A DNA stretch of 49,647 bases, the filler included, from Jimgerdemannia flammicorona (Eukaryota), in assembly GCA_003990765.1 (NCBI GenBank). It is 2 parts of 2 records of this genome, joined end to end, with 100 filler letters (N's around TTAATTAATTAA, not from the genome) between each part and the next. Parts side by side here need not be neighbours in the genome. Positions count along the whole stretch, not along the records: positions 24,876 to 49,647 come from RBNJ01000927.1; 1 more part is not named here. One strand, written 5' to 3'. This document shows positions 7,922-49,647 of the stretch, one piece after another. The notes under the pieces are model-generated. The model made no database searches. It saw only the letters and a list, made by a program, of their open reading frames with translations, and had not been told where the DNA came from. The translations under genes were made by a program, and so were the position numbers. The first letter of the stretch is position 1, and the number at the start of each line of letters is the position of its first letter.

Positions 7922-9019
7922 TTAGACACTATCTGGGTAGTCTTTGATGACATCACCATCAATGACATCATCTCTGATGAAGTAGTTATCTAGGAAAAGT
8001 AGTTTGCAGATCACTTCTCCTTGTTCACTGAGGTAATAATACATCAGAACTTCATCTTCGTCCTACAAGATAGTATCATCTGTCTCATATACTGGATAAA
8101 GTATTGGTGGGCAAAGTAGGAGTGTATTGTTTTTACTTTCATTGGATTCGCTGTCTGCATACCTTCTATAGGTTATAGTACTATGAGTCATGGGGTTGTA
8201 GTAAGCTGGCAGCTGTGGTTTATGTTGCTTGTACTCAGGTGGTGAAGTGGTTGATTCGATCTCAAGGGTTGTCTGGAGGTACAGGTTGTGTTCTCCAGTC
8301 TCTTCATTATAGTTGAAGTAATCCAGAGTGAACATAGGTTGGTATTCATACCAGTGGTCATTGTCCCAATAGGTCTTGTAGGTGGTTATGAACTGTTGTA
8401 AGTTCATTGGTAATATTGGTAGAGTGATCAGAGTTGGCAGAGATTCTTGGCTGGAGGTCATGTTGGCATCAGAGGGATCATTGTCTTCTGCTTCATCTTC
8501 ATTGAACTGGATTATATCATAAATATCCTTCATAGCATATCTGACTTGAGGCATTTGCAGGATATGGTCATTGGGATATAGGAAGGTTCTATCTGTGGTC
8601 TGGACATACTTGAGGTACTTGTGGTTGAGTTCTTGTATTATGTCATTGATTTGACCATAGGATAGAGTAGCAACCATTTTAGTAGTAGTAACTCAGAGGT
8701 GGGGAATAAAGGTGCTATACTCATAGAAGAGTTTTTGGTGTTTGCAGGCAATAAGTTTCTGGTGTTGAGACATCTGGGTAATGTCCATATCATAGTGGTA
8801 TTCAACCATGTCTTCCAAGAGGCAGCCAATCTAATAGTAGCTTGAGATTTGTCCAATTCAGTGGGCCTCACTAAGTATGTTCAGGGTATTCCATTAGGCT
8901 TCTACAAAGTAGAGGGATGCTAGACTATGGATATTCATAAGGGGCAGAGGGGGTGTGACTCGATTGACAATAGTATTCCAAATTTCAGCATAGATGCAGT
9001 TGTAGATCTCAGTGGTTAT
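7922..9019 (-). pseudogene. ~365-codon accessory ORF inside the U3 of the B LTR (unknown product)
   Basis: One frame from MTTEIYNCIY to DYPDSV* with only 5 internal stops; includes the 204-aa track ORF 8063..8677; homologous frame in B2 at 38033-39129. Confidence 0.75.
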
Positions 9020-21464: not shown

Positions 21465-21742
21465 GATGACGCGTGTGTGACGTATAACGGGGAATGTGTG
21501 ACGTGAGGGAAATGTGTGACGTGAGGGAAATGTAGATTGTGTGACGTGTTAAGAGAGAATGTGTGACGTGTAAGGGAGAATGTGTGAATGTGTGACATGT
21601 TAAGGGAGAATGTGTGAATGTGTGACGTGTTAAGGAAGAATGTGTGACGTGTTAAGGAAGAATGTGTGAATGTGTGACGTGTTAAGGGAGAATGTGTGAC
21701 GTAATAGGGAATATGTGACGATAACAGGAAATGTGTGACGAC
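21465..21742. promoter_or_regulatory. Tandem array (AATGTGTGACGTGTTAAGGGAG-like units) in the PEX6/ARPC2 bidirectional promoter
   Basis: 12 TGACG cores (9 of them TGACGT) in the 420 bp between the divergent start codons. Confidence 0.7.
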
Positions 21743-21805
21743 AACAACTATAGTCAGTCAGACACGTCAGATACATTTCATCTGCACCCAACATTCCCCC
21801 CCGCC

Positions 21806-24775: not shown

Positions 24776-24875
24776 NNNNNNNNNNNNNNNNNNNNNNNNN
24801 NNNNNNNNNNNNNNNNNNNTTAATTAATTAANNNNNNNNNNNNNNNNNNNNNNNNNNNNNNNNNNNNNNNNNNNN
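24776..24875. other. Artificial contig linker: N44-TTAATTAATTAA-N44
   Basis: A palindromic 12-mer with stops in all six frames (24820-24831), centred in a 100-nt gap. Confidence 0.95.
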
Positions 24876-28447: not shown

Positions 28448-31400
28448 ATACAGTTGTAGATTTCAGTGGTCATATTTATATATATATTCAGAAGTTGGGA
28501 TTGTTTATTTGGTTTATTGTAGTTTTCTATTTTAATATATCTTAGTACTCAGTATATATGCATTTGGTTCTGATTGGTATATAAGATTCTGTTTATATAA
28601 ATCTTATATTCTATGACTTTGAGTTGACTCAGCTTTGTACACTATAACTTCAGTTTGACTTAGCTTCATAATCTTGCAGGTGATTCCCAGATTTGTTTAG
28701 AGATCATATGTAATTTTGATAGCTTGTTTAGAGAGTGATATGTGATTTCAATAACTTGAAGGTTGTACACTTACAACTCTCCTCTTCTTAGCTTTTGATA
28801 TCCTCATCAGAGTCTTCTAATTTTGATCTAGTGTTATTATACCATTTAGATGGTCAAAAGTCCAGTAAAGTCCATTTTTCTCAGAAAGTAGCATGCTCAT
28901 AGTACAGTTGCTTAATGCATTAGATTTATATATTAAAAGATCATATGTTCAATATCATATGCCAGAAGTGATTCTGATGTCATTCACTATTGGAGAATTT
29001 TCTCTAAGAAATCTTCTTAAATATCTATGCCTCATTTCCCACCAGTGGTATGGAGAGAATAGACTGGCTTTCAGTTTTGCTATTTTTCTAAAGGATCAGT
29101 ATTCTTTTGTCTTAATTTGCTGAGTTCTTAATTTTGTTCATAATAATTATAAGAGTACTTGATGTTCAGGAGAGATAATATATAGTATATACTGATAGAT
29201 ACAGAAGTATTCAGATTTCAGTTATTCAAGAAATCATATTTCTGAACTAAGTTGGTGGCATTCTGGAGATTGGTCTTAGGTTCCCATGTTGCATCATAGA
29301 TCAGATAATCTTTCCATTTAACAAGATACTCAGGATAGTTCTTGTATCTATATTTGTTGAGAATTTGTTCAACTTCGTATTCTTCTTAGTCATTAATAAT
29401 AACAGGTGCAGGTGGTTCTGTGGTTTGGTTCAGGAATAGTTCATCATCATTTATATTATATCACTTAAGACATTAGATATTGAAGACTGGATGAATCTTA
29501 ATAGTATCTGGTAGTACCAATTTGTAGGAAGTAGGAGAGACTTGTGTAATGACTTTGAATGGTCCAATAAATTTACTGTTCAGCTTTGTAGATGATCTGT
29601 ACTTAAGGTTATCAACTTGGTATCCTTAGATATCTAATAGAACTTTTTCTCTAATATTGAAAGTTTCTTCTTAGCAGTGTTGATTGATATACTGTAACTA
29701 TTGTTCTTGAGCTTGGGATAAATTCTCAATTACAATCTGGCTTAAATTACACATTTGGAGCAGGAATTCTTCAATGGCTTCAATAGTAGAGAGTTCATCA
29801 GTAGTTTGGATAAGTATCAGAGAAGTGTTCAGGTTTTGTCTAGTATTGGTAAAGAATGTAGTCATTCTAAGAGAGGCTTGCTTGCTGTTATTGTAGCCAA
29901 ACTCAACTGTAGTGAGATATTTATGCCAATCATCCTATTTGTAGGAAACATAGTTCCTTAGCATTTATTCTAGAGTTTGGTTCATTCTCTCAGTTTGGCC
30001 ATTAGTCTCAGGGTAAAAGGCTGTAGATAGTATAAGTTTTATTCCAAGATATGCATAGAGGGCTTTCTAAAAATAGTTGGTGAATTTCAAGTCTCAATTA
30101 CTAACAATAATCTTAAGAAGACCATGATAGTAGAAGATGTTATCAAACAAGAGTGTAGCTATATCTGATGCTATTGTGATAGTAGTAGTTGATATAAAGT
30201 GAGCTTGTTTGCTAAGATAGTCTATGAAGACAACAATTGCATCTTTCTCATTCTTGGTTTGGAGTAGTTATACAATAAAGTCTATAGAAATTTATTCCCA
30301 ATTAGCTGATGGTACTGGGATAGGGTGGAGTAGGCCAGGTTTTACTAGTATTGAAGACTTGTTACATTGGTAGACATTATAGGAAGTGATATAAATCTTT
30401 AACTGATCTGCTATATGGGGCCAATAGAAGTTTCAGGAAATAACTTCATAATATTTATCAAATCCTAAATGTCTAGCTATAGGGGTATCATGATATTCAA
30501 ATAGGATAGTCCTTTGGAGGTCTCTATTGTTTGGAATATATAATCTGTCCTTATAGTAGATAGTATTATCCTTCAGTTAGTATTGATAGTACTAGGTATA
30601 CTTATCAGCATTATCACTGCTCAGGATTTCTTAGAGTACTTGAGCTTTCTTATCATCAGCACATGCTGCAATAATTTATTTCATGATAGAGTTTGTAATC
30701 AAGGTGAGAGTTTGGATAACTTCTTTAATTAGTAGTCTGAAAATTGCATCGGCAACAATATTCTCCTTGCCAGAGTGATACTGGATTTTATAGTTGAAGT
30801 TGGTAAGAACTTTCATATATCTGGCTTACTTTTGGGAAAGAGTAGTCTGGGTCTTAATATTGACTAATGATTTGTGGTCTGTTAAAACAGTGAAGTGTGC
30901 TCCTTTTAGATAGGATCACCATTTGATCAGAGTATCTATGATGGCTAATATTTCCTTCTCATAGATTACATAGTTGATTTCAGCATTATTGAACTTATAA
31001 TAATGATAGACCACAGAGTGTCCTTCTTATATGAGTACTACTCCAAGAGCTAGATCAGAGGCATCAGTAGTAACTTCATAAAATAGAGCAGAGTTTGCCA
31101 CTTGAAGTACTGGAGTGGTTATCAAGGTATCTTTTAGTGCTTAAAAGGCTGTATCTTATTTAGGTCCCCAATTTACAAGATTGTTAAAGTCTCTTTCTTG
31201 CTTCACAGTCCAGGACTGTTCTTCTTTCTTACTATACTTAGTCATTTGGTGAAGTTGGTAACAAATTGCCAGTAATAGTTTACTAATCTCAGGAATGACT
31301 AGAGGTCTTTCAGCTTCTTGGGTCAAGGTCATTTTTTGATTATAGAGATTTTGCTGAGGTCTACTTTGATTCTATTAAGAGTAACTATGTATCCAAGGAA

Positions 31401-32859
31401 TTGTATTTCCTTCAGAAAGAATTCACATTTGCTGAGTTTTATAAAGAGTCAGTTTTCTTGGAGTTTCAGTAGTACTAGTTCAAGGTGTTTGAGATATTTC
31501 TCTAGAGTTTTGCTAAAGACTAGGATGTCATCAATATAGATAACAATAAATTTGTTCAGGTATGAGTGTAAAATAGTATTCATAAGTATCTAGAAGGTTG
31601 CTGGAGCATTAGTTAAGCCAAAGAGCATAACCAGAAACTCAAAATATCTATAGTAGGTTCAGAAGGCTATCTTGTAGATATCTTCTTCTTTCATGGCAAT
31701 TTGCCAATAACTATTTTATAGGTTGAAAGAGCTCATGAACTGTGGATTGGTAAGCCTATTGAATATTTTATCAATTCTAGGTAATGGGCAGCAGTTCTTA
31801 ATTATTTGCTCATTGAGGTCATAGTAGTCTATGCATATTCTTAGGTCTCCTTCTTTCTTGACAACAAAGAGGACTGGTGTACTATAGGGTAATATACTGA
31901 GTCTGATGAATCCTTGTTCTAGGAGTTTGTCAATTTTCTTTTTGAGTACATCAATCTCTCTGAGAGATATGTGGTAGATTGACTTGAAGACTGACTTGGC
32001 ATCTGGGATAGTCTTGATGACATGGTCTACTGCTCATTTAGGTGATAGGCCTTTTGAGAGTTTCTTTGGGAATATATCTTGGAATTTCTAGAGTAGAAGT
32101 CTGACATAGTTGTCAACTTTGGAAAAGTCTTCTTCAGAATTCTTGGGTTCTCCTTTGAATGGATGGATGGAGATAGCAAAGAGAGGGCATTTCTTGGCCA
32201 ATTTCTTAAACTGTAGCTTATTGATGTGGGTGATCTTTGGTCCAGGATCACTAGAACTGAGTGAGTCCTTTTTGCCTTGCAGTTTGAAGTTGTGGTATTC
32301 TTTCTTAATGGTTAGGAAATGGTTTATCCAATTGATTATGAGATTCTCTTATTTCAACCATAAGGTTCCAAGAATGATTTTATTATCAGAAAGTAGTACA
32401 ATCTGGAGGGTAATATATACTCAGTAGTCACTAATTAAGAAGGATAGATTGTAGACTTCCTTGCTAATGATATATGAGATTCCATCAGCTATAGCAACTG
32501 CTTGAGTTTATTGTACTAAAGATGTCAGGACCTTGAGTCTGTTGGCTGTTTCTTTATTGATAAAGTTGCCTAAGGCACTACTGTCTATTATAATCTTGAC
32601 AGATGCTTAGTTGACAAAGGCTTGAAGTGTAAGTAGTTTGTCTAATCCAATGGTGGTGATTTTAGTTATAAGAGCTTTTCTTCTATTGGGTTTTCTTTGA
32701 GCCAGTTCATTGACACAAGAGAAGTAATTGTTGATCATTCAGGAAGAGTACATTCTAATATCATGAGAGTATTGACCACTGGGTATATATCTATCTTTAA
32801 TTTTCTTGTAGAATTATTCTTCTTTGTTTGTGGTAGGTTGGGCTAGGGTCTTGTTTGAT

Positions 32860-33262
32860 GAACTAAATCCTTTGGATCCTCAGATAGTGGGCAGTAGTTC
32901 AGAGACTTCTTTGACTATTAGAGCTGATTTAATTTTCTCAAATAGGATCTGCATAATACAGAAATCAATAGAGATCTTGAATGGTATCTAACTGTGGTTT
33001 TGGATAAGGATAATAATTTCATCTATATAATCTTTATCAATGACTCCTCTTTCTACTGAGAGTTCTTTCAATGCTAGGCTGCTGTGATAGTATATTCTTC
33101 CAACATATCCTTCAGAGATTTGAATGCTAATTCCTGTATAGACTTACTTGACTTCTCAGTTGAAAACTGTAGCTTCTTCAGTTATATATAGATCATATCC
33201 AGCTATCTTTTGACTTTCTCTGGTTGAGGCCTTGGCAGTTTGCCTTAACTTGACAAAGTTTG
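32860..33262 (-). pseudogene. dUTPase domain in B2
   Basis: Collinear with 4830-5235: AGYDLY...TGISIQI...VIDKDYIDEI...*GSKGFSS. Confidence 0.88.
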
Positions 33263-35858
33263 ATATTTTGATAGTCAGATTATTGAGGTAGTGTAGAGTA
33301 GTAACAGTTGCTTATATCACTGTTTGGGGTTTTCAGTTAGAGCAGACACTAGTCATATGTCCTGTCTTTCAGCAATAGAAGTATACTCTACTTATTTGAA
33401 GTTCATTTCTTTCTCCTTCAGTGAGTTTCTTAAAGGTACTCAGCTGAGTGGATTTATGATTTCAGGATGTCCAAGAGGTAGATATGAAGAGAGCTTGGAG
33501 TGCTTCATGCTTGGGTTCTTCTTTCTTAGTTTAAGTTTTTTCTTTATTGTTGAATTATCTTCAAGGCAGGATTGGTTCAGCTGTTAGGATTTACTTGACC
33601 ATAGTCTTGATTCTTACCAGATATTATTATTGATGATCACAACCAACTGGGCATCTTTGTTCTTGTATTTTTCTAGTAAGTCATTTAGGCAGTACATTGA
33701 AGTTCAAAGCTTTATTAGTATAGTTGACACCAACTTTGAAGCCAATCAATAGACCAGTGAGCAAGTTGCTAACTACTCTCTGACAAACAATTAAGACCAT
33801 ACTCTAGAACAACTCTTTGCTACTACTATGGCCTATGTCTGTTAAGTTGTTATATTCTTCTGAGAACTTACTGAAGAATAGTGGTGAATCCTTCTTGAAA
33901 AATCTCTCACATGGGATACCTGACCTGCAATAGTTGCCCAGAATACAGCAAACAATACCCCAGAATATGGAGCCCACCCTATAGTTCCTGGACTCAAACA
34001 ACTCATGATTGCTCAATACTGTAGTGAAACTATTATTGCCAAATCTTGAGTTAAACTCCACAACCTCAAATTTGATATATATAGCAAAGAGAAATTTGAA
34101 ACCTTTTGTACAAAACTTGAGTTACTCCTAAATATTATTGGCCTAGAATATATTGCCAATAATGAAACATAAAATAGTATAAGAGCAGACCATTTATTCT
34201 TATATAGTACCATTGAAGGTAGATAGATTCAGATTTTTTGTTAGTCAGGTCTGTTCAGCTAAGGCAGTGATGGTTGCTGCCATTATTGCTACCTAGGCTA
34301 TGAGGTCTAAAATCTGTTGATTTGCCATGTTATTTACTAGAGATAGTTGGACTATAGTAGTAGTATTACTGATACTACTTGAGATACTGGTGCAGAGTGT
34401 AATGGGGTTCTTTGAGTCTGTATAAGTTACTGGAGTAATAATTGTGGGTCTGGAGTAAGGGCTCAATAGATAGCTATCTGTTGCTGTATAGATATATTCT
34501 GTCCTGATAGAGGTACATCTCCTTTGGTAGTATATCTGGAATTAAATTTACTAAGATACTCCTCTTCCTCTTTAGCTTGGTCTCTGTATAGTTGGGTTTG
34601 CTTAGTATTGAAGTAGACAGAATCAGTTGTATATCTAATTTTAGATAGACTTAATTCAAAGTCAAGTTCTGGTTCAGTATTGGTTTTGGGGTCAGATAGG
34701 GCTGTAGCTGGACCTGCTTCTAGTTTGGGGTCAGGTTGTTGATGAAGAGTTTCTCTTACATCTTTCTTAAGAATATGGTAGACTTTACTGTTCTGAAAGC
34801 AGTAGTATAATGTGGTCTTAGTCTTAGTGTGGTGAAAGTCAGTAGAGTTGAGCCACTTGACTATAGAGGCTTGGGCTTCATGAGGAACTAAGGCTAGAAA
34901 GACTACTGCTGGTTATTCTAGGTCACTCAGATTTGACAAAACTCTTGTTGAGAAGAGTGAAGAAGGCTTCTATAAGACCTTCTTTATCTTGACTTATGGA
35001 GTGTAGAGCAAGGAGTTCAGTGTATAGAGTTTCATCTATCTGCTGATTTAATTAGAGTACTTCTTTCTTTGAATGAAATCTGTCTCACTTGTTGCAGATG
35101 TGGAGGTCAAATTGTCCTTATACATCAGATTTAATTTTCTCCAAATTGTCAGATAGTTCAGGATAAATTTCAGTTCAGAGGTTGGGTTTTATACCAACTT
35201 GTAGAAATTCTCAGAGGGGTTTGTAGTGGAGTAAAGAAGTGTCTTGAAGTGGAATTAGATTATAAACTGCTACTGCCAAGTTATAAGAGGGTTACTTATT
35301 AGGATAACTGTTATGTAGTTCTGGAAGGGTTTTCTAGAAGTTCTGGATATTCTGAAAGACTGTTTTCTTAAGGTCAAGATCAATTTCATATGGAGTATAT
35401 CCTCTATGCTTATTGATTTCAAGATCAGATTAATGTCTCAACCAAAGTTCTTATTTGGACTAGTTCTGGATGTTCAGAATTTTTTATATTTCAGAAAGTT
35501 TAAGAAACTAAGACTAGCTTAATTGAATTGGCATATTGCTATAGACAATATCCAATTAGGAAATTTTATGATAGAGTTAGGAGTGAGACCTAATGAGGAG
35601 CAGATTTACTTAAGAGTGATTTGTGAGTTATTAAATAGGTTTATTTACTATTCATAGTATTGCTATACTAGGAGTAGTTATATAAGGGGATATTGTGGGA
35701 AAGTATTCAGAAATGCTCTTATATATATAAGTCTTAGATTCTGAGATCTGGGAGAGGGGGTATTTATACTAGTGAGGAGCTATCTAGACTATGCTAAATA
35801 TGGATATAGTACTTAGTGTCTTGCTGAGTCTGAATGCAGTCATGTAGTATAAGTGTGA

Positions 35859-37916
35859 GATTGGTAGACTGGTGGGTGAGGATTAGCAAGGTTTTGTCAA
35901 AGAGAGATAGATTAGAGACAGTACTACTTGGGTGTAGAATATCTTGGAGGGGTATAGGAGTCAATAAGTAGATAGATGGATGGTCTTCCTGGATCAGAAG
36001 AAGGTATATAACAGGGTATGGTAGAATTATCTTGAGGCAGTATTGCAGAAGATAGGGCTTGGTATAGTAGAGATAAGGAGATTGATGGGTCTGGTATAAG
36101 GTTATAGAGCAGCAGTACTGATGAATGAATAGAGTAATTCAGAATTTGCCTTAGAGAGAGGTATACCACAGGGTGACCCTCTCTCTCTCTTACTATATAT
36201 TCTCTCTTTGGAGCCCTTATTGGCTTGGTTGAAGGGGTGGCTTACTGGATTGTGAATGAAGGAAGTAGTCTGGAAGCTGGGGGCCTTTACTAATAATATA
36301 GTGGTTGAACTGGGCTATATAGCAGATGTGGAATACCTACAAGAAGAGGTTTAACAATATGAGAGACTAATTAGAGTGAAATTGAACTGGGGCAAGTATG
36401 AGACAATAGAGCTAGGCATGGGCTTGAGAGGGATTGGATAATTTGGACATGCAGTAGCTATGAGAAATGCTGTTCAATATTTGGATATCTGGTTTTCAGT
36501 ATATAGGATAGTTCTGCCAAATGAATGGTAGTGTGGTATAATATAGAAGTGGGAGAGAGTATTGACAGATTGGTCAAAGAGGTGCTTCTCCTTGATGGGG
36601 AGAGTAGTGGTCCTAAATGTATACTGGTTACTAAAGTTATGGTATCTGGGATATTATCTGGATTTTCCTGGATAGATGGTATAGCAGCTGAAGAAGATAG
36701 TAGAAGGATAGTTATGATAAGGTAGGTAGCTGCAAATTGGTTGAGAGATAGTGGTGCTGAGGACAGTAGATGGGGGTTTGGGGTTGGTGGACTTTCAGAG
36801 GTAGTTAAAGGTACTCTGGGGTTAGTAGAGATATTAACTAGTAGAATTGGGTGAGGAAAAATGAGGCAGACTGGCTATGGACAATTGGAAGGTCAGGTTC
36901 TGCCCTCATGGTGAGATTTGGAAGGATATGTAAGGACTGCTTCAGGTTGAAAGGGTCAGTTAACTATGGTTTAAGGGGTTCTGGTAGGGTATTATAGAGG
37001 TATGGCTGAGTATGGGGTTAACAGAGCCAGAAATAGGTGAAGGTGTGAATCTTGAGCAATGCTGGTAGCAGTTAGAGGGCCTATAAGTTAGTGGCCACTG
37101 GTTGGTTGAGTACTCACTGATGGAGGTGATGGAATGGATTAGGTCTGGCCCTCTTGAGAGGTGATCTGTAGGGTGGCAGAGGGCAGAATTTGGAGATGGC
37201 TGGGATTGGGGGCAGATCTGGAGCTAGGGGGCTTCCTTGCTCAAGATTGTACTGCCTAAGTACTGGGTAGTGTGATAGTAGTTCTTGAGGAGGAATGTTA
37301 TATTAGGGTATTGGACAGAATGGATGGAGGTAGAAGGAGGTAGAGAGTGTGAATAGTGTAGTGAGTTAGATGGGAGTGTGGTTCAATTGCCAGAGCATAT
37401 TCTCACAAGATGTCCAGAGATAGAAGGGTATTAATAGATATTAGAGAAATATTGGGGTTCTGAAGGTAGATGGCTGGGGGAACCTACTAGCCTGATTGTC
37501 AAGCAATGATTGGTGGGGGTGACTGGAGATGTCTGGGGGGGGGGCTAAGTCAGATTCTTGGAGTCTGGGTCCTGATGGTAGTACATTGGTGATGAGTGTT
37601 CAAGTGGGATCCATGGATGGGAATTAGTGAGTTGGTGGAGCAGTAGAGGTGACTCCTGTAGGAAGTAGTGTAAGGGTAGTAGTATTAGGAGAAGCAGCAA
37701 TAGCTGGGGACCTTGAGGAAGGTATAGGACATTGTACAGAGGAGCTGTAGTAACCTGGTGCTAGATGACTGAGGGGTACAGTAGAAGAAAGGAGTTGGCT
37801 AAAGAGTTCTCTTCTATATATAATTTAGTAGTAGTAGCTGGAGAAGATTCAATATTGTCATAGATACTAGGGAAAAGATTGATAATAAATAGAGTCCAAG
37901 AGACTATATAAAAAAA
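35859..37916 (+). mobile_element. 5'-truncated L1/Tx1-like LINE with poly(A) and a ~17-bp TSD, in the B2 5' LTR
   Basis: RT motifs GIPQGDPLSLLLYILSLEPL (~36160-36220) and AFTNNI (decayed FADD); YLDI; GGLGLVDF; A-tail at ~37910-37917; TSD ATGTAGTATAAGTGTGA (35842-35858) / ATATAGTATAAGTGTGA (37917-37933). Confidence 0.9.
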
Positions 37917-38032
37917 ATATAGTATAAGTGTGATCTGATATATCAAGAGATCATCTAACTGCTGAGTTAGTTCATAGTCATATCATATAAGGCTAATCTA
38001 ACTATACTATAACTACTAAGCTATCTATAGAT

Positions 38033-39129
38033 TTAAACACTGTCTGAGTAGTCTTTAATGATATCACCATCAATGATATCATCTCTGATGAAGTAGTCAT
38101 CTAAAAAGAGTTATTCATAGATGAATTCTCTCTATTTGCTAAGATAATAATATATTGGAACTTCATTACCATCCTACAGAATAGTATCATCTGTCTCATA
38201 TACTGGGTAAGATATTGGTGGGCAAAAGAGGGGTGCATTATCTTTGCTTTCATTGAATTCACTATTTGTATACCTTCTATAAATAACAGTACTATAAGTT
38301 GCAGGGTTGTAGTATGCTAGTAGTTGTACTTCATATCACTCATACTCTGGTAGTGGGGTTGTTGGTTCAATCTTGTGGGTTGTCTGGAGATATAGATTGT
38401 GTTCTTCAGTCTCTTTATTATAGTTGAAGTAATTGGGATGAATGCAGGCTAGTACTTATACTAGTGGTCATTATCCTAATAGATCTCATAGGTAGTTATG
38501 AACTATTGTAAGTTTATTAGTAAGGTTGGTGGGGTAATCAGAGTTGGTAGAGATTCTTGGCTTGAGATTATGTTAGCATCAGAGAGATCATTGTCTTCTA
38601 CTTTATCTTCATCAAATCAGATTATATTATAGATATCCTTTATGATATATCTGACTTGGGGCATTTGCAGAATATAGTTATCAGAGTGTAGGAAGGTTCT
38701 ATCTGTGGTCTGAACATACTCAATATACTTGTGGTTGAGTTCTTGTATTATATCATTGATTTGGTTATAGAATAAAATTACAACTATTTCAGTAGTAGTA
38801 ACTCAAAGATAGAGAATAAAGGTGCTATACTTATAAAGGAGTTCTTGGTGTTTGCAGATAATGAGTTTCTGGTATTGAGATATTTGAGTAATATCTGTAT
38901 CATAGTAGTATTTAACTATATCTTCTAGAAGATAGCTGATTTAGTAGTAGCTTGAGATTTGTCTGATTTAGTAGACTTCACTAAGTATGTTCAGGGTATT
39001 CTATTGGGCTTCTATAAAGTAGAGGGGTGCTAGACTATAGATATTTATAAGGAGTAGAGAGAGTATAGTTTGGTTGATAATAGCATTTCAAATGTCAGTA
39101 CAGATATGATTGTAGATTTCAGTAGTCAT
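38033..39129 (-). pseudogene. Second copy of the U3 accessory ORF (B2 5' LTR)
   Basis: Collinear with 7922-9019; intact ATG at 39127-39129; a 1-bp deletion near 38440; more stops. Confidence 0.7.
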
Positions 39130-39431
39130 GTTTGTATATATATTCAGAAGTTAGAGTTGTTTGTTTGGTTTGTTGTGGTTCTCTGTTTCAATATATCTTA
39201 GTGCTCAGTATACATATATGTATTTGGTCCTGATTGGTAAGATTCTGTTTATGTAAATCTTATATTCTATAACTTTGAGTTGACTCAGCTTTGTATGCTA
39301 TAATTTTGTTTTGACTCAGCTTTGTGATCTTGCAGATAATTTCCAGATTTGTTCAGAGGTCACATATTATTTTAGTAGCTTGTTCAGAGAGTAACATGTG
39401 ATTTCAGTAGCTTGGAGGTTATATACTTACA

Positions 39432-39633: not shown

Positions 39634-41090
39634 TGTAATATGCCAGCTCAATGGAGGCAAATTATAAGGTTGGGGGTTGATGTAGTTTGGCTTGAGCCCC
39701 CAGTTACTTTGTCAAAAAGCAATAAAATGTTCTAAGATTCCTGAGGTCCTTGGTGTTTAGCAGTATAATAGTCAAAGCTGGATATCTGCAAGTGGTTTCC
39801 TTATTGGGACTATTCTCTAGGTGTAGTGGCAACTTGTATCTCTTCTTCTTGGGTCAACTGGAAATGGTACAATTTTGTGTAGTGAGGTAATTTCCAAAAG
39901 TATATGATTTCTGGGTGACGATCTTGGTGCGATGATCTTTGTGTAGCATGACGATCTTCTTGTGTATAACAGTCTGGCAATTTAGTGGTTCTCCTTATGC
40001 AATTTCTGCATGATAATCCTTATATAGCATGATGATTTCTAAAAGTATGCAATTTCTGGCAGATAGCTTGATTTGGCTTACTGGAAATTGTATGGCATAG
40101 ATTCTTCTGTAACAGACTCACTAGGAATAATGAATAACTCGGATGTCGCGGATTCTTTCTGAATCAGCAGAGTTCTTCTGGGAATGTGGCAGATAACTCA
40201 AAATAGCAGATGATATGGATTCTTCCTGAATTGGCAGACTTCTTGAAAATGGCGGCTTAACTGGGAATTAACTCAGATGGTATGGATTCTTATAAATCAG
40301 TAGCTTCAACTGAGAATACAATGGCATGGATTCTTTCTGAATTAGCGGCTTCGACAGAGAATGCAGACTACTGGTGGCATTCTTTGGGAAAGGGTCTCTT
40401 GGCAAAGTCATGTCAAAGACTGGCTTCATTTGTGCAATGAATCACTGCAAAGTTATATTAGAAACTGGCTTGAGTAAGGCAGCTTTCTTGGGAAGGCGGA
40501 GAATAACTTGGAAATGGCGGCTTATTCCTTAAGTAGCGGACTACTCAAATAGTGGCGAAGTTCTTCCTTAAACTTGGTGGCAAATCAGCTTTGTATCAGA
40601 AAGTGGACTGGAGTGGAAAGGGGAAATAAGCTCACAATCTCCTAACAGTGGCTATAGAGTTCCTCTCGAAGTATGGTAGGCAGACTTGTCTTTTGCTTCA
40701 ATTTCAGACTTTTCAGACTGAGGTTTATTCACTCTTATCTCTGGGGTAATTTATACAAGTTGGTTGCTATCTGGTTACTATATGGCTAACTATAGATTTA
40801 CTATCTCCGGTAATGTTTGGGTATATCCTCTGGGTACAGGTGTGTCCACAGGACATGAGTGTGTCTGCAGGACATGAGTGTATCTACAGGACATAAGTGT
40901 GTCTGCAGGACATGAGTGTGTCCTCAGGATACAGATAAATAATCCTGATCTGGTGTCTTGGCTAATTATAAGTATGACAGACATGGGTAACTATGATATA
41001 CTAGAAGTCACATCATGCTGAGTAGGTATGCTAATTGTTTACATCATCTGGCTAAGTTATAATTCAGATGATACATTTTGGACTATTACA
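39634..41090 (-). repeat. 3' LTR of C (~1.46 kb) with internal subrepeats
   Basis: Direct repeat of 48673-49328; minus-strand GTATAAAT at ~40750-40757 and AATAAA at ~40724-40729. Confidence 0.88.
40840..40933. repeat. 19-bp tandem repeat x5 in the U3 of the C LTR
   Basis: Unit GTGTGTCYNCAGGACATGA. Confidence 0.88.
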
Positions 41091-41642
41091 TCAGCCCCCA
41101 CTGAAGGGTAGTCTGTCCCAGACTATTCTTCAGTTATCATCCCAATAGACATAAGCAGCTTCTGCATCTATACCTGTTCCATCATCATCATCTGAGCTAT
41201 GGTCACTCCATTCCAGAAGCTCTTCTTCTTCCTCAGAAAATAGGATCTCCACTTGGTGAATAATGCTGAGGTAGGTGGGCAGTGTCATCCTTTGGAGGTC
41301 ATTTAGGGAAAACTGGGCCTAGATTAAGGCAGAAGGATTTTGTTTATATATTGTGTATAGTCTGTCTGCAGCAGTAGTATTCCTTCTGTTCAGGCTAGTG
41401 GTGTTTTGGACATAGGCTACATCTGGGAGAGGAAGATTCTGCAATTGTTCTCCAATTGTATAATATGCCTGCAGCTGGTAGACCTGGAGTAGCCTCTTGG
41501 CCAAAGTGAGGTTCTCTTGATGAACTCAGATTTTCTGAAGATATGTTCCATTGGGTTCCCGGAACTGAGGCAGGGGAACTGGTAGGGCTTGGAGGGAACT
41601 GAGAACAAGGGTTTGGAGGCAGTTGTCAATTCTCTAATTCAT
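41091..41642 (-). pseudogene. ORF3 of family C (~183 codons, unknown product, acidic tail)
   Basis: One frame from ATG 41642 to TGA 41091 abutting the LTR, with 4 internal stops; includes track ORF 41319..41504. Confidence 0.72.
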
Positions 41643-44524
41643 GGTATAAGAACAAGTATATCTTGAGGTGATTGATGTATACTGGTGTTCTCAGGGTTCA
41701 TCCATCCATGCTTCTTAAATAGATGCTGGTTTCTCTGATGTTGTGTACAAGATAAGGTACTTCCCATTTTGGTTCTAGTTTGGCAGCAAAGTTTGTCTCA
41801 ATCATGCTTCTCTAAACTAGGACTTGATCTCCAATCTTGATCTTCTGATCCTTCTGTTTTTGGTTATAGTACTTCTTTTGTCTTTCCTGAGCTTTGATAA
41901 TCTGTCCTTGGGCTTGATTTCGTAACTGTTCTGCCTTCTTGAGGAGGTCTCCGAGATTCTCATGGTCAGTAGTTCTAGTTTTCTTGGCAAACATCATTTC
42001 GAATGGCTTTTGTTTGGTAGATGCAGCAGGAGTGTTCTGAATTTCCCATAGGATCTCAGGTAAGCAGAGGTCCCAATTAGTAGGGTTGACTTGGGCAAGT
42101 CCTTTCTTGATGGTCTGGTTCATTCTTTCTGTCATGCCATTGGTCTGGGGGTGATATGATGTAGTCCTTTTGAGGTGGATCTTGTGAATTCAGGCATAAC
42201 TTGTGATTATGTTATTGATGAATTCTGTGCCTCGGTCAGAGATAAGTTCTTCTGGAGGTCCATATCTGAGTGTGAGTCCATGGAGGAGGCCTACAATAGT
42301 TAAGGCATCTGCGATTTCCATTGGGAAAGCCTCTGGCCACTTGGTCAGATGTTCTACAAATACAAGGATGTATTTGTTTCTTCTTGGTGTAACTGGTAGA
42401 GGTCCAATTACATCTACTCTCCATCTTTGGAAGATGTGAGTGGGTGTGGGAATCGGTTGCAGAGGGGCTTGATAGTTCTTCTTTCCTTGATACTTCTGAC
42501 AGATGTCACATTTCTGAATGATGTCTCGGACTTGGGTTTTGAGGTGGGGTCAATGTTGATGTTGTTTTTGAATCTTGTCTTCTATGTATGTCTATCCTTG
42601 GTGGGCTTTCTGATGTTACTGTTGGATGAGATTTTCTTGTTCCTTGATGGTCTGAGGGGCTTCTTTTAGGGTGTAGTTCCTCAGGACACCCTTCTTCTGG
42701 TTCATTGGGGCTGGCAGGAAAGTACATCAACATTGTTGTAAGCTTTCCCTGCTTTGTGAATGATGGTGATTTTGTAATTCTGAAGGATGAGGATCCAGCA
42801 GGCTAGAATTCCAATAGGTTTCTTGTGGTTGAATAGCCATTTGAGGGCTGCATGGTCTGTGGTCAGGGTGAACCTTTTTCCAATAAGGTAATGCTTGAAC
42901 AGGGTGACTGCCCATATGACTGCAAGACATTCCAGTTTGGTGCTGCTATAGTTCATCTGCTGCTGGTTGGTAGCCCTGCTTGTATAAGCTATCACATAGT
43001 GTTGTTGATCAGGTCCTTCTTGGGACAGTACTGCCCTGAGGCCATCTTTGGAAGCATCTGTATACAAGATGAATGACTTCTGTAAATTAGAGCACATAAG
43101 GATTGGTGCTGTAGTCATGTGGTTCTTGAGTTCTCTGAAGGCTTTTTCCTGTGATTCTATCCATTTGAATGGCACTCCTTTCTTGAGAAGGGTTCGGATT
43201 GGAGTAGCAATTTAGGCAAAATCTTTGATAAACCTTCTGTAGTAAGATACTAGCATCAAGAATGATAGTGTTTCCTTTGGAGTCTTGGGTACTGGCCAAT
43301 TGTTGATCTTCTCGGTTTTCTTTGGGTCTGCATGAGTTCCTTCTTTTGAAATCATGAATCCCAGGAATTCGAGTTTCTGTTTTCCAAAGTAGCATTTCTT
43401 TGCATTCAGTCTCAAGTGATTCTTGTGGGTGAGCTTAAAGAATTCCTCTAGGTAGTGCAGGTGTTCTTTGAAATTTGCTGAATAGATGTTGGAATCATCC
43501 ATATATACAATCAGACAGTGGTGAATCAAGGGGGCATAGACTGAATTCATCATCCTCTAAAAGGTGGGGGGTGCATTGCAGAGTCCAAAAAGCATTCAGA
43601 GGTATTCAAACAGTTTTCCTAGAGCAAGGAAGGCTGTCTTTTGAATGTCCTTGGGGTCCATGGGGATCTCATGGAATCCTGTGAAGAGGTCTATACTGCT
43701 GAAGTATCTGGCATCTTATAACTGGTCCAAAAGGTCATCAATTCTGGGCAAAGGATAAGCATCCTTTTCAGTAACTGAGTTGAGTTTTCTGTAATCCACA
43801 CAGAGTCTCCATCCTCCTTTCTTTGGTACAATAAGTATAGGGCTGGCCCAGGGGCTGGTAGAGAGTTGGATGACTCCATTGTCTAAAAGTTCTTGTATGT
43901 GCTCTTTTTCAAATGTTTTTAAGTGATGGGGTATTCTATAGGGTTTCTGCCAGATAGGTGTTGCACTTTCTGTATTTATGCTGTGGTGATATGATAGATT
44001 GTATAGCAGGTTGCCATAATTGGTGGTGAAGATATCTTGATATTTATTGAGAAGTTCTACTAGTTGTTGCTGTTGTTGAGGTGTCAATTCTTCTCCAATG
44101 TTGGTAGAAGGCTTCACTGTCTCCTGGGTCGCAGAGGGGCCTTTCCTTTCTTCTGGGACCTTTTGCTGTTTCCCGATAGGTTTAGTTCATAAACTTCTCT
44201 GTGAGTTCGGTTGAGAAAGGCACCAGATGTCCTATGATGGTTCCTTTTGACAGGATGATGGTCTCCCAACTTTGGTTGGTTGCTCGGGAGTGTACTGGGT
44301 TCATCTTGTCAGGGAATGTGTGTCCCTCTATATCTAGGTGTGGAATATCTTCCTTGGGTTTAAAGAAAAGGTTTCTGGGGTTGGGTGGTGCAAAGATTTC
44401 GAAAGTAGTTTATTCTCCAGGCTCCAGGATGAGATTCTTGTGCAGTCTGACTAGTTGCCAGTATACTTGCTGGGGAACATTCCTCTTGAGGTGGTTGACT
44501 TGAAGGAGATGTACCTCTTTCCTG

Positions 44525-44935
44525 TCTGAACTTCCAAATCCCTCAGTTTGTCTTGTTCCTTCAGTTAGTTCAGAGACTTCCTGTAACTGCAGGGTCTTGA
44601 CCTTCATGAAGACTGCTTGGGCAATCTTCTATCCTCTAATGATTCAGTGCCATTCTGCACTGCTGTTGTGTAGGATAACCTTGATCTTGCCTATATATCT
44701 AGGGTCAATGGTTCCTCCTTCTACAGTTATTTCTTGTCTGGCAAGTCTGGACCTTGAGGTCAGTTGAATATAAGCTCCTTGAGGTGGCTGCATGGCTAAT
44801 CCAGTTCTGACCATGAAGGTTTTTCCAGGCTTGATAGATTTATCCTCCAGGCTGTGAAGATCATATCCTACATCCTCTGGGTGGGCTTTGGTTGGGGGTT
44901 TGGTCTTGGGGTGCAGCAGAGCATACTGGGCAATG
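44525..44935 (-). pseudogene. dUTPase domain in C, between protease and RT
   Basis: PTKAHPEDVGYDL...RTGLAM...SRSRLA...VEGGTIDPRYIGKI...KIAQ...RQTEGFGSS. Confidence 0.92.
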
Positions 44936-47900
44936 TCCTTGCTGAGTTCACACTTTCCTAAGGCTGAAGCTCCACTAGCGGAAAGCCTCCAAGCTCTAAG
45001 GTTGAGGTGTGGCCATCTGGCTCCAGTAGAGGGGTCTCAGAGGTAATTGATTCTCCTTCTTCCTGTAGGGTCAAGGGCTTCCATGAAGTTGGTGGCATCT
45101 TCTGCCCATCCTTAGCAGGTTATATGTCTGATGAGAGCTAGGATGTCTTCTCCCAAATCATAGATCTTGAGAATTCTTTTTCCAGGCTTCTTGGTCTGGC
45201 TTTTTCGAATCTGACTTTTTTGGATCTGGCTTCAGTTATCTCCTTTCTTCAAGGTGTACACTGCAACATCATGACTGAGGTGAATCTTCTGATGTCTGCA
45301 GTCTCAGCAATCAGAGTGTCTCTCATGATTGCAATATCCCATTGCTCGAAAATGATGTTCCCAGCTATTTATCTCTTGTTGTCTTGAGAATCGGTACCCA
45401 TTTTGATCATAGGTTGGGGGAAGGGTAGACAAGGGGTATATTTCTGTTTTGGTAAAGAAGCCTTGTCCTCTAAATTGACTTTGTAACCTTGTGGTGACTT
45501 CTTGAAAGGTAGTAGACTGTGCAAGAGTAGTTGGGGGTTCTGGTCTCTAGGGTCTCTATCTTTCTTATTGGTCCAACAGATGACACTGATAGCAGTAGTC
45601 TTGGGGAGAGTGGAAGACCATTTGATGTGGACATCTTTCTAGCTGGAAAGCTTTCTCTTGGTGGGTTTCTTTCTTGGGGATAATGGTGATAGTACTGGGT
45701 CCTTCCTCTGTATTCCAGGGGTCATTGTCTTCAGGTGGTATCCAGCGAGGGTCATCCCAGGAGATGAGTTCAGGGACTTCTTCTTCATCAGGTGCTTCTT
45801 GTTCAGGAACTTCTTAGTCAGAAGTTTCTTCTTCCTCAGATGATTCTTGACCCCAAATTGCTTGTACTTCTGCAGCCTCAGTTGCAGGTGTTTCTGGGAC
45901 ATGTCTGTATTTCTTTTTCTTCCTTCTGCACTCTGGGCAGGCTATGCCAGGTGATTTCCTTGTTGCCATGATCTTGGAGGAGTGCTCAGGACACTTGTGT
46001 CTCTTGAGGCATGTAGGGCATCCTTTGGCTTCTCCTGCAATGGCTCCAATGGTGATAGGAATAGTGTTCTTGGCCCACACATTGTCTTCTGGTCTATCAT
46101 CCATCAGATTGATTCAGGAATTGAGTCTGGGATCATTTCCATCTTTAGATTCTTCCTCTTCTTCTGTGGTAGATTCTTTGCTGCTGGCATACTCTTCCTG
46201 AATAGTGACTTTCTTTTTCTTCTTTGATTGCTCATAGCTGGTCACCTTAACTCTATACTTCTTGCCTTGGTAATCAAACTTAACTACTTGTTGGCCGATA
46301 TCAACAACTGCATTCATTTCCTTCATCCAGTTGGTGCTAAGAATCATATCATAGGTAACAGCTTCGGTGATAACAGCTTTGGGGATGGAGAACTGAATGT
46401 GTCCAAGAGAGATAGTGATATTTCATACTTCTCCAAGGGGTTGAGTTCAGGCTCCATCTGCTACTATGATGCTGAGGTTGGATGGTCCATCAATGGGCCA
46501 TTGGAGGGTGTCCAGGAATCATTTGGCAATGATACAGATAGCTGCTCCTGTGTCTATGAGGATTTTCGCTTTTTGTCCTCTGATATCTCTATGTAGATAG
46601 GTGCTGACATGTCTTTCAGCTGCTTGAACAGAGATAGGAGCTGGTTCTTGCTGTGGGATTGGAACTCAGCCAGTGCTAGACCTTGTAGTTCTCAGCAATT
46701 TGTTTCAAACTCCAGCTGGTGTCAATTGCAAGAACTGCAGGAGGGGGACTTCCATCTTGGCCTCTTGAATCTTCTGCCAGGCTTCATTGTAAATGTCTCT
46801 AGGCATAGTCTTTGGAGTATACTTTTTCTTAGGCTTTGGAGCAGCAGGTTTCCATTCTTCTTATTCCATTTCTTCATCTTCTGGTGGCAACTCATTTGTC
46901 TCAGAGACAAAAGGTGAGGGGGTTCAGGGGGGTGTTTCAACTTGTTCCTCCTCATGTTCTTCATCTTCTTCTTAGATAATTCTTCTGCTGATGTTCCTAG
47001 ATGGTCTTCCTACAGGTCTCTTTCTTTTTTCTACTAGGTAGACTGTCTTTCGGGTGGTAACCTTGGTAAGGTATAAGTCTAGGTCACTGTAGTCTTCACT
47101 GTTGCTTACTTCTTCGAAATCTTCAACAGGATGGGCTTCAGTCTTCTTGTACTGAGTGTCACTCCTTCAGTTTCATGGTTCTGAGTCCCTTCGGTCACTT
47201 CTTTTGTTGTCACATTCAGTAGTATAGTGTTTGAATTGTCCACAGTGGAAGCATTGGACTTGGGCTCTGTCTCGGACAGAGTACCTTCTTTCTTCTTGCT
47301 GGTAATTCCTGTTATCTCTTGGTGGGTAACCTTGGCTCCTCTGTGGTGGGTACCCCCTGTTGTTTTGATAGTCCTGATTTTCACATGTGGTGAGTTTTTC
47401 AATCTATCCAACCAATCAGTCTAACTTGGAGCTGAGGTCTTGAATTTCACTTCTGTCCTTCTTTCCTTCCTTGGCTGGCCTTCTTTCTTTGGATCTTTCT
47501 TGTCCTTGAAGGAGTCCTTGCAGGGCTTTGATCAGGATATCTTCTTTATCTTCCTTCTTATCATGATCACTCCAGGTAGTTCCTTGCCTGACATCAAAGA
47601 ATTCTTGAGCTGTATCTACTTGCTCTTCAGACCTTCTGATGCCTAGGTTGCAGACATACTGGGCAATATTTGGGGAAATTCCATTCATGAAGGTCATTGG
47701 GCCTATGATATCCTAGTTGGTGGCATTGAACCCGGCAGAATATATTCTCTTCTGGATTCTTGTGAAGAAGGCTCTGGGTGATTCTCCAAGATTCATCTTC
47801 ATCCCTATGATAGATTCCTGAGCCTTGTGATGGGTTTCATTTTCTGCATACTTTTTGATGAGCCAGTGGACCATGGCCTCATATTCTAGCTCATCAGAGA

Positions 47901-48652
47901 ATGCCACTTATATCTGTCTTGCTAGTTCCGAATCTGGGTTATTTGCTGTTCAGTGAAAAATTCCTCTAGCTGGTTCTCTAAGCTGGGCTTTGTAGATGGT
48001 AATTTTTCTTTCATCTGAGAGGTTTCTCAAGGCTGTAATTCCTTCAATTCCATCAAGGAATTCTCTGGGGTCCTCCTCTGGATATCCTGCAAAGGTTGGC
48101 AATGAGGTGGCCATTTCTTTGTCACTTTCTTCTGATTCTGGTTCAGGTTCAGATTCTGATTCTGATTCACTTTCTGAACTGTCACTAGAGACAGGGGTGC
48201 TTGGGTATCTTGAAGATGATGTTCTGGTTCTTGGGTGAGATGAGATAGGCCTAGGTATTCTTGTAGGAGCTACTTCTGGTTCTGCAAGTGGTTGTGGTAG
48301 AGGTTCTATTGGTGAGATTGGTGGGACTGGTGTGGGGTGTCTGGCTGTAAAGTGTTGGGTCCAGGTAATAAAGTCTTCTAATTCTTGTGCAAGTTCTCCA
48401 AAATCTCTAGCAGGACTGTCTGTATTATCTGGTTGATCTGGTTGGGGATTTCGGGCTGTACTGCCTCCTGCTTCTGGTTGGAATCCTTCTGATGCTGAGT
48501 AGTTGGCAAGTCTTGAGGTGATTACTTCTCTTTCTGTCCAAATGCTAGTGATGACTAGTTCTCCTATAGTGGCAGAGGTTGGTGTTGTATCAAATGTATC
48601 CAGTTTGACTGTGGGTTCTTGTGAGCTAAAAAGTCACATTAATTTTAAAATC

Positions 48653-48670
48653 TTCCCAGTTGAGCCCCCA
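48653..48670 (-). promoter_or_regulatory. Primer-binding site of C, tRNA-Pro type
   Basis: TGGGGGCTCAACTGGGAA, 2 nt from the 5' LTR; 14/18 identical to the classical tRNA-Pro PBS TGGGGGCTCGTCCGGGAT, with two differences being CpG-type transitions. Confidence 0.78.
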
Positions 48671-48672
48671 AA

Positions 48673-49328
48673 TGTAACGTGCCGGCTCAATGAAGGCAAA
48701 TTATAAGGTTGGGGGGTTGATGTAGTTTGGCTTGAGCCCCCAGTTACTTTGTCAAAAAGCAATAAAATGTTCTAAGATTCCTAAGATCCTTGGTATTTAG
48801 CAGTATAATAGTCAAAGCTGGATATCTGCGAGTGGTTTCCTTATTGGGACTGTTCTCTGGGTATAGTAGTGACTTATATCTCTCCTTCTTGGGTTGACTG
48901 GGAATGGTACAATTTGTATAGCAAGGTAATTTCTAAAAGTATGCAATTTCTGGGTGACAATCTTGATGCAATAATCTTTGTATAGCATGACAATCTCCTT
49001 GTGTGTGACGGTCTGGCAATTTAGCAGTTCTCCTTATGTGATTTCTGTGTGACGATTCTTGTGTAACATGACGATTTCCAAAAGTATACGATTTCTGATA
49101 GATAGCTCGATTTGGCTCACTGGGAATTGTATGGTGTGGATTCTTCTATAATGGGCTCACTGGGAATAACAAATAACTTAGATGTTACAGATTCTTTCTG
49201 AATTGGTGGGGTTCTTCTGGGAATGCAGTAGATAACTCGAAATGGCAGATGACGCAGATTCTTCCTGAATCGGTGGACTTCTTGAAAATGGCGACTTAAC
49301 TGGGAATTAACTCGGATGGCGTGGATTC
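48673..49328 (-). repeat. 5' LTR of C (partial)
   Basis: Matches 39634-40289, then similarity stops abruptly. Confidence 0.88.
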
Positions 49329-49647
49329 AATAACACCTTCCACCGGTAACTTTCAGGTGACACAAGATTTGGACAACACTTTCTGTGAAGTTTTTGGTGA
49401 AAAGCTACTATCAACATGGCGAGCAACGAGCAAACTGGTGGGCAGGCCGGCCAGGGGGGCAGCCGTGCCTTCGACTGGCAGCAGGTTGGGAGGAAACGAG
49501 GAGATGGTTTGGGGATGCCGGGGCCATCTGTGGTGGGCGGTGGCGCTGGAGGTGGAGGGAGAGGTAGACTGAGGCAGAGAGGTGGGGGGAGGGCGACCTT
49601 TGCCGACAGGGTCAGGATGGGGAAGATGGCCACAGGGCTGGATGGTT
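49329..49647 (+). mobile_element. Probable 5' end of a young LINE (5' UTR plus ORF1 start at 49416, open to the window end)
   Basis: Abrupt switch to CpG-containing sequence inside the C LTR; MASNEQTGG...WQQVGRKR...RGGGRATFADRVR resembles LINE ORF1 N-termini. No diagnostic domain lies within the window. Confidence 0.5.

Follow-up and report, generated by a model that had tools for sequence, protein, structure and literature searches.

An accessory gene 3′ of pol in a fungal Ty3/Gypsy element and its probable N-terminal relationship to a protein encoded within the LTR of a second family

Extra genes turn simple LTR retrotransposons into complex, virus-like elements, and they are almost unstudied in fungi. 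A stretch of DNA from Jimgerdemannia flammicorona (49,647 nucleotides, analyzed over its whole length and referred to here as the window) raises the question in a concrete form. One Ty3/Gypsy element, family C, has an extra reading frame (ORF3) between its integrase and its 3′ LTR, and a second Gypsy family, family B, has a reading frame inside its LTR. Are these frames genuine genes, and are the two proteins related? A preliminary description, made from the sequence alone, had proposed that they belong to one shared, uncharacterised accessory-protein family. The proposal stands in part: the N-terminal ~72 residues are very probably related, but homology over the whole length is not supported. 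The explanation that we consider likely overall is that C ORF3 is an accessory gene with an N-terminal module homologous to that of the B LTR protein.

Family C ORF3 is an accessory gene with a dead copy in the window

The window has two GC-rich host genes (GC 0.49-0.61) with AT-shifted nests of Ty3/Gypsy elements on both sides, every element lying on the minus strand (Table 1). Differences between repeat copies were dominated by transitions (transitions:transversions, 213:16, 618:65, and 93:0), mainly C-to-T before A, and other copies were found to have G or C at A/T sites of the window in all four public runs compared (contigs of 150-485 nt). The transition bias, together with the G or C in other copies, indicates that a RIP-like process has degraded the copies in the window.

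Table 1. Coordinates of the elements, genes, and parts of genes discussed in the text (positions along the window)
Feature	Position	Strand	Remarks
Family A element, second cut copy	1-1385	minus	
Family B copy B1	1387-9019	minus	resumes beyond inserted A copy; LTRs ~3 kb
B LTR ORF, copy B1	7922..9019	minus	365 codons + stop; first codon ATA; 5 in-frame stops
Family A element	9023-14588	minus	5.6 kb; 400-bp LTRs
PEX6-like AAA ATPase gene	within ~16.9-23.3 kb	minus	GC-rich host gene
Arp2/3 p34 subunit gene	within ~16.9-23.3 kb	plus	GC-rich host gene
Family B copy B2	26073-39431	minus	LTRs ~3 kb
B polypurine tract, A-A-G-A-A-G-A-G-G-A-G-A-G-T	28776..28789	minus	alignment of three LTR starts
B LTR ORF, copy B2	38030..39129 (3′ end approximate)	minus	ATG kept; many stops and a frameshift
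Family C element	39634-49647	minus	
C 3′ LTR	39634..41090	minus	~1.46 kb; TGTAA...TTACA
C polypurine-like run	41091..41101	minus	G-T-G-G-G-G-G-C at 41101-41094, plus last pre-LTR bases; sequence
Family C ORF3	41130..41642	minus	170 codons + natural stop TGA at 41132-41130; inactivated in window
C ORF3, acidic C-terminal tail	41130..41240	minus	alignment and charge count
C ORF3, N-terminal module (~residues 1-72)	41427..41642	minus	sole part detectably similar to B ORF
Integrase part of C pol	41626..42549	minus	Pfam rve and rve_3 matches
C 5′ LTR	48673-49647	minus	continues past window end

Upstream of C ORF3, the element showed Pfam matches to dUTPase, reverse transcriptase, RNase H, and integrase. 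Its pol ends ~60 residues past the integrase G-D-x-V motif, both in the window and in an intact relative (locus L001, see below), and a chromodomain is absent, which sets the element apart from the chromoviruses. A chromodomain-like Y-L-V-K-W...A-T-W-E-P stretch was read by eye in the translations of families A and B. The LTRs of the C element were recognized from a pair of segments matching at 85.5% (39634-40289 and 48673-49328). Loose ends at 39634 in public runs X1 and X3 carry the primer-binding-site sequence that is present after 48673, and the contigs of run X5 cease matching at 41088, near the C LTR edge.

A frame running from the end of the integrase to the LTR edge on the minus strand was present in translation, as the preliminary description had it. 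The interval that it had assigned to this frame, 41091..41642, reads as quoted but is not open: the translation from 41642 to 41091 has premature stops at codons 3, 39, and 108, and its last 13 codons lie beyond the gene. Because the relatives start where the frame does and end at codon 171, its natural stop, we place the gene at 41642-41130.

A word-based search of 5.8 billion clusters returned three C ORF3 proteins (E 2e-70 to 4e-51, 67-69% identity), two of which are full-length (171-172 aa) with ends coinciding with those of the window frame. The intact C relatives P0001 (171 aa), P0002 (172 aa), and P0012 (171 aa) share 67-69% identity with the window copy. An exhaustive HMMER search of 1.84 billion representatives with the C profile gave five cluster representatives at E<=1e-3, all of them C-type, down to ~43-55% identity. 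A metagenome scan with C found a single locus, L001, with an integrase followed by ORF3, and scans of viral contigs with the B and C alignments gave 92 and 117 pattern matches, respectively, and no relatives. The relatives of both families all stem from short environmental contigs, and no relative bears an informative name; the family comprises ~10 clusters.

Comparison of C ORF3 with L001 gave a dN of 0.264 and a dS of 2.11, i.e., a dN/dS of 0.12, and the adjoining part of the integrase gave 0.06. The same DNA read in the two alternative frames gave 0.98 and 1.65. These values bear on the possibility that the frame is not a gene at all and is a 3′ untranslated stretch held open by chance or by a constraint on the nucleic acid. 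The three premature stops of the window copy would fit such a stretch, and protein databases admit only open frames and so are biased toward "intact" relatives. However, the low dN/dS is specific to the ORF3 frame, and the start overlapping the pol stop, the position of the natural stop, and the C-terminal motif are all kept across relatives at 43-84% identity, which makes an untranslated stretch very improbable. C ORF3 is thus a genuine accessory gene under purifying selection, and its window copy is dead. Both the C and the B frames lie on the sense strand 3′ of pol, the position of the accessory ORFs of LTR retrotransposons (the ORF3 class), and purifying selection on an open frame, which also characterizes this class, was found by dN/dS for C; for B, intact relatives show the frame to be open.

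Non-synonymous change was ~7 times faster in ORF3 than in the adjoining integrase (0.264 versus 0.038), with dS also being higher (2.1 versus 0.65), and nucleotide identity falls across the pol/ORF3 border from 85-95% to 56-69%. This jump in divergence could reflect recombination at the border or simply saturation.

The ATG of ORF3 and the TGA that ends pol overlap in L001, giving ATGA, and in the window copy the pol frame overlaps the ATG by 17 nt. The latter arises from a one-base length difference between the window and L001 just upstream of the ATG. Since the ORF3 ATG overlaps the pol stop, translation would most likely proceed through termination-reinitiation, or else use a subgenomic or spliced RNA. 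Taken together, the gene may be described as an accessory gene of a chromodomain-less, dUTPase-bearing fungal Ty3/Gypsy element, of which the window copy was killed by RIP-like C-to-T changes.

A reading frame within the family B LTR

The B frame is interrupted by stops in both window copies, and its status was judged from relatives. P0010 (128 aa, intact) matched B residues 1-128 at 77% identity and is open across all four of the B1 stops within the first 109 codons. P0004 (247 aa, intact) matched B1 codons 115-365 at 58% identity in tblastn and is open across the fifth. Judging from these relatives, the B LTR ORF is a real coding gene of ~365 codons; residues 2-73 of the B1 ORF are the module that matches C ORF3. 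A metagenome scan with the B N-terminus gave 359 pattern matches, none of them a relative.

The position of the B ORF relative to the LTR boundary was settled at two places. At the 3′ LTR of B2, the LTR start TGTAAG is found at 28775, immediately after the polypurine tract, and contigs of run X2 link the sequence of this tract to the LTR edge at 39431. With TGTAAG directly after the tract and the X2 joins, the ATG of the B ORF at 39129 falls 303 nt inside the LTR. The B2 ORF accordingly begins 303 nt into a ~3-kb 5′ LTR (39431 to 34404), which is interrupted by a 2-kb insertion at 35858-37917. The proposal that B and C hold their ORFs on opposite sides of the polypurine tract was thereby confirmed from the sequence and the alignment of LTR starts.

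In the 3′ LTR of B2, the ORF is reduced to its first 28 nt and its last 84 nt. Codon 9 is followed by another LTR start sequence, which shows this LTR to be chimeric. The "cassette" that it contains (27696-28454) was compared with both ORFs and is unrelated to either.

Similarity between the two proteins is confined to the N-terminal module

The preliminary description had aligned the two N-termini by eye, almost without gaps. All of the motifs that it quoted were found in the translations, and the N-terminal blocks are colinear, with residues 5-9 at offset 0 and PLP and Q..YY.IG..L at offset +1. The "NC" that IDNCL and IYNCI have in common proved to be a product of decay: P0010, which alone represents the B N-terminus in intact form, has N-R there, and the eight database C-type N-termini have R (four), H (two), or C (two) at the position of the C.

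Alignments of the decayed window copies and standard database methods gave little. Smith-Waterman scores of the window C protein with B1 and B2 were 46 and 38 and were reached by 43 and 204 of 1000 shuffles, respectively. No B-C cross match was found by tblastn with 10 queries against the window at E<=10, and the hhalign probability for B and C was 0.5%, 2.2% (P 0.021), or, limited to the B N-terminus, 8.4% (P 0.004). The C HMM scored P0010 at 8.7 bits in hmmsearch (reached by 4 of 3000 shuffles), and the scores of the B HMM with four C proteins were reached by 132, 59, 9, and 7 of 3000 shuffles, with reversed P0006 scoring the same as the real protein. No B-type protein appeared among the 1.84 billion representatives in the exhaustive HMMER search with the C profile. 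The window-copy alignments, tblastn, hhalign, and the exhaustive search gave what a chance resemblance would give, if B and C were two unrelated, lineage-specific accessory genes and their N-terminal match had been picked out by eye from among many comparisons.

Tests using relatives and profiles gave a different picture. When five C proteins were aligned with P0010 by Smith-Waterman, the scores of P0001, P0002, P0003, P0006, and P0007 were reached by 24, 44, 8, 1, and 0 of 2000 shuffles, respectively. The profile-profile Smith-Waterman score was 37.8, against 21.1 +/- 3.1 for column shuffles, 1 of 1500 of which reached it. The ungapped comparison of C columns 1-75 at offset +1, for which the offset and the span of 75 columns were both fixed with the alignment already in view, scored +15.8, against -62.6 +/- 15.2 for column shuffles, with none of 20000 reaching it; the remaining 53 real offsets scored from -101 to -26. 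A C profile built from database proteins only scored +23.9 with P0010 at the fixed offset, again reached by none of 20000 shuffles.

The highest fixed-offset scores belonged to P0006 (38) and P0007 (33), the C members that have diverged furthest from the window copy, with 13-14 identities in the 75 columns. P0001, P0002, and P0005 scored 11 to 19, and window C with B1 scored 15. A coincidence selected on the window copies ought to fade in relatives, but this match grows in sequences that the preliminary description had not drawn on.

Reciprocal scans located the match on the start codons. In a six-frame scan of 98846 window positions with P0010 residues 2-76, B1 and B2 ranked first and second as self copies, followed in third place by the start codon of C ORF3, with a score of 14, the next position scoring 5. 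The ORF3 start of L001 ranked first of 2690 positions there, with 33 versus -12. In the opposite direction, C itself came out on top when the database-only C profile was run over the 98846 positions, with B1 in second place (12.4) and B2 in fourth (10.9). Scores of 11.4, 8.7, and 7.2 at unrelated positions were close to the B scores (within 1-5 units of the B matches), so that the C-profile scan alone is not significant, which again would suit a chance resemblance. Nevertheless, a coincidental match falling exactly on the start codons in both directions and growing in the distant relatives is unlikely to our judgment.

A resemblance that is real may also have arisen by convergence, if unrelated proteins acquired a like helix, proline loop, and Y-Y-x-I-G helix by contacting a common host or element partner. 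Consistent with this, the likeness is limited to a short module with few sharp motifs, the remainders of the proteins differ completely, and the genomic niche is common to both. On the other hand, the positive signal is carried by ~70 ungapped columns, all at one offset, rather than by one short motif, and it begins at residue 1 in both proteins, and convergent linear motifs rarely hold their spacing over 70 residues; convergence is therefore improbable. For residues 1-72, then, the fixed-offset, profile-shuffle, and reciprocal-scan tests of B-C relatedness were positive, and tblastn, HMMER, and hhalign remained below their thresholds. On the strength of this sequence comparison, the N-terminal ~72 residues of C ORF3 and the B LTR ORF are probably homologous.

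Past residue ~72, the picture is simpler. C columns 73-171 aligned with B columns 74-365 at a score of 25.7, and 13 of 150 shuffles did as well; Y-W-D-D-D with Y-W-D-N-D was the best segment. The pair YLSIIHQV/INDIIQEL and the acidic stretch following it, put forward earlier as further shared blocks, belong to this part and fell with it. The profile-profile comparison with shuffled controls, which the preliminary description had named as the way to check its claim, thus supported the N-terminus and gave nothing for the remainder. The remainders of the B and C proteins have no detectable similarity, though both are strongly acidic.

Protein features, origin, and possible function

The C module is laid out, in a low-confidence model, as a helix, a P-x-P-L-P-x-F loop, and a long helix with Q-L-x-x-Y-Y-x-I-G. 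The AF2 model of P0001, built from nine sequences, is all-helical, with helices at 2-18 and 34-67, four shorter helices up to residue 134, and a tail without structure, at a mean pLDDT of only 47.0; the corresponding B model (mean pLDDT 30.6) is unusable. Both models open with a helix at 2-19 followed by a proline loop, although at these pLDDT values they are too poor to be compared. An Atlas model of P0001 (pLDDT 0.76, pTM 0.68) had no structural neighbor above TM 0.37. In the Atlas feature search, P0001 and P0010 received identical nearest clusters at 0.93; as these clusters are mixed and unnamed, the agreement may be a hub effect, and we give this result little weight.

The tail of the C protein has conserved aromatic residues, L-E-W-S-D, and a terminal Y-x-Y-W-D-D. 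The net charge of the C proteins (-12 to -16) comes almost wholly from the last 37 residues, which in the intact relatives carry -15 to -18, and the B proteins have a net charge of -34 to -36. The ~171-aa C protein would thus be composed of an all-helical, near-neutral N-terminal part, as modeled, and a 35-aa, very acidic, aromatic tail.

Domain searches returned nothing above cut-offs. For the six intact proteins, Pfam at E<=10 gave only LST1, Peptidase_C21, and Endo_dU (E 0.06-0.2, below cut-offs), and the two window copies gave no family at E<=1. Profile searches of the PDB found nothing at E<0.03, the best C match being at E 0.8 and the best B match at E 0.038 over 25 residues. A loose likeness to the N-terminal helices of YhcG/DUF1016, suggested earlier, found no backing in these Pfam and PDB searches, as none of the Pfam matches was a relevant family. 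No membrane-like segment was present in any of the six sequences (maximum Kyte-Doolittle 19-residue mean 0.57-1.04), in agreement with the earlier view that the protein lacks a signal peptide and a transmembrane segment and is not env-like.

How two Gypsy families came to hold related modules on opposite sides of the polypurine tract can be approached from their pol genes. In tblastx segments, pol identity was ~38% between B and C, 40% overall between A and B (46.6% in the longest segment), and 33% between A and C. Family A has no such ORF, and it is no further from B than family C is, suggesting that either an ancestral ORF was lost in A-like lineages or the module was exchanged. The simplest history would be a single ancestral 3′ accessory gene for B and C. 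In the B lineage, a purine run lying upstream of it may have taken over plus-strand priming, which would have brought the gene inside the LTR in one step. The C/B pair is a concrete case for how LTR boundaries move across genes.

Extra genes of this general kind have precedents. Fungal chromodomain Gypsy elements are drawn with additional ORFs lacking assigned function in the parts of Novikova et al. 2010 (PMC2864245) considered here, and the C and B frames resemble these, as depicted there, in being sense-strand extra ORFs of fungal Ty3/Gypsy elements, some with a dUTPase at varying positions. Compared by description only with the ORFs in those parts of PMC2864245, the C/B family differs in that one member is embedded in an LTR and in that its N-terminal module is defined. 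In bdelloid rotifers, ORF3 types are common to unrelated retroelement lineages, according to the portion of Rodriguez, Kenefick and Arkhipova 2017 (PMC5408684) that we drew on. As presented there, the rotifer genes are accessory ORF3s downstream of pol in several dUTPase-bearing LTR lineages and are read as modular sharing, as may be the case here. Those ORF3s, as far as that portion of PMC5408684 goes, encode recognizable proteins (GDSL esterase, DEDDy exonuclease, and fusion glycoprotein), unlike the C/B protein, which has no recognizable domain and shares ~72 residues.

In our full-text search of the literature, no family already described matched this ORF, nor was an ORF inside the LTR reported for any fungal retrotransposon. 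The C/B accessory gene is undescribed, while extra ORFs and the sharing of ORF3s are, as kinds, already known. The gain is moderate, since the family is narrow and is confined to the environmental contigs described above.

Retroviruses such as MMTV (sag) and HIV (nef) have 3′ accessory genes in or overlapping U3. The B ORF is like these in lying after the polypurine tract inside the LTR, so that the 3′ end of the genomic RNA would contain it. This likeness is drawn at the level of the LTR, in which the ORF may lie in U3, as the preliminary description had it, or in R/U5. The B ORF has no sequence relation to these genes by Pfam. Sag is a membrane protein, and the C/B proteins, unlike Sag, have no transmembrane segment. 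C ORF3 also shares its position between pol and the 3′ LTR with the env-like ORF3 of Athila or gypsy-type errantiviruses, but its product is acidic, soluble, and helical, with no signal peptide or transmembrane segment (maximum hydropathy ~1.0). The C/B pair is also a concrete case for the role of a non-envelope accessory protein in a fungal retroelement under RIP.

Foamy-virus transactivators of the Tas/Bel1 type are small 3′-encoded proteins, structured toward the N-terminus and acidic, with aromatic residues, toward the C-terminus. C ORF3 has no sequence or fold match to them, and their likeness serves as an analogy and a functional working model. By this analogy, C ORF3 would fall into two functional parts. 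The shared N-terminal module would bind one common partner, be it nucleic acid or protein of the element itself or a factor of the host, and the acidic/aromatic tail would draw in host machinery, for instance by serving as a transcription activation domain at the LTR.

Our best guess at the function of C ORF3, a tentative one drawn by analogy, is a regulatory adaptor, i.e., a transactivator-like regulator of its own LTR. A putative role as an anti-silencing or anti-RIP factor is conceivable but less likely, and one as a chromatin-tethering or integration cofactor less likely again. It is doubtful that all of these features combine into a regulator family whose ~70-residue N-terminal module either moved among distinct fungal Gypsy lineages or persisted in them as the effector part was exchanged, with one member ending up within the LTR after the plus-strand priming site had shifted, and with the proteins, produced by pol-coupled termination-reinitiation, acting like a complex-retrovirus transactivator or in counter-defence against RIP or silencing. 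A putative assembly cofactor is the role that we rate lowest among those considered for the protein.

Junction and divergence of the family C copies

We compared two C-type copies of the Ty3/Gypsy element, i.e., L001:1-1569 from an independent metagenome contig and 41280-42880 of the window, and found them to have a mosaic pattern of divergence. Nucleotide identity was 72-84% in the RNase H domain and the N-terminal part of the integrase, 85-95% in the C-terminal part of the integrase, and 56-69% in ORF3, the accessory gene following pol, with dS across the pol/ORF3 border being 0.65 versus 2.1. In L001, the independent copy, the pol stop codon overlaps the ORF3 start codon as ATGA (L001:1150-1230), and the junction in the window copy (41626-41660, minus strand) is set apart from it by a length difference of one base a short distance upstream. 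Some fungal RNA viruses use such an ATGA stop-start arrangement to couple termination with reinitiation.

Decay and rearrangement of the repeat copies

Across the whole window, 90-100% of the differences between repeat copies were transitions, mostly C-to-T before A, and this bias is a RIP-like signature. Every premature stop in the accessory ORFs of families B and C sits at a position with a sense codon in the intact, open-frame relatives.

Notable features were seen in both LTRs of B2, one of two decayed family B copies. In its 3′ LTR, a second LTR start sequence directly follows codon 9 of the embedded accessory ORF (~28451-28399) and is itself followed by ~700 nt with no relation to the ORF. 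This LTR is either chimeric or a related variant without the ORF. In the insertion that splits the 5′ LTR, the strands differ strongly in composition, with a GC skew of +0.5, and the minus-strand frames are rich in Pro, Ser, and Thr; two of its ORFs, tested against Pfam, gave no match. Immediately within the 5′ boundary of the family B internal region, a 500-bp segment of B1 (5673-6173) runs opposite to its B2 counterpart (33699-34198), with 82.7% identity when reversed.

Features of the B2 LTRs and of the host gene region
Feature	Position	Strand	Remarks
Imperfect C/T-rich tandem array	15338-16230		~48-60-nt units, 11 copies
PEX6-like AAA ATPase	within 16930-23214	-	host gene between transposon nests
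Arp2/3 complex p34 subunit	within 16930-23214	+	host gene between transposon nests
B2 3′ LTR	27696-28775	-	retains LTR head, first 28 nt and last 84 nt of ORF
2-kb insertion	35858-37917		splits B2 5′ LTR

Host genes and their surroundings

The GC content of the two host genes was ~0.49-0.61, compared with 0.31-0.44 in the elements. The tandem array adjoins the PEX6-like gene and is contained in a 421-codon minus-strand open frame that had no Pfam match; it may encode part of an acidic, repetitive protein of the host or be a repeat without coding function. At 24776-24875, with the host genes on one side and B2 on the other, two 44-N runs were read as probably an assembly gap; these positions are the filler joining the two records.
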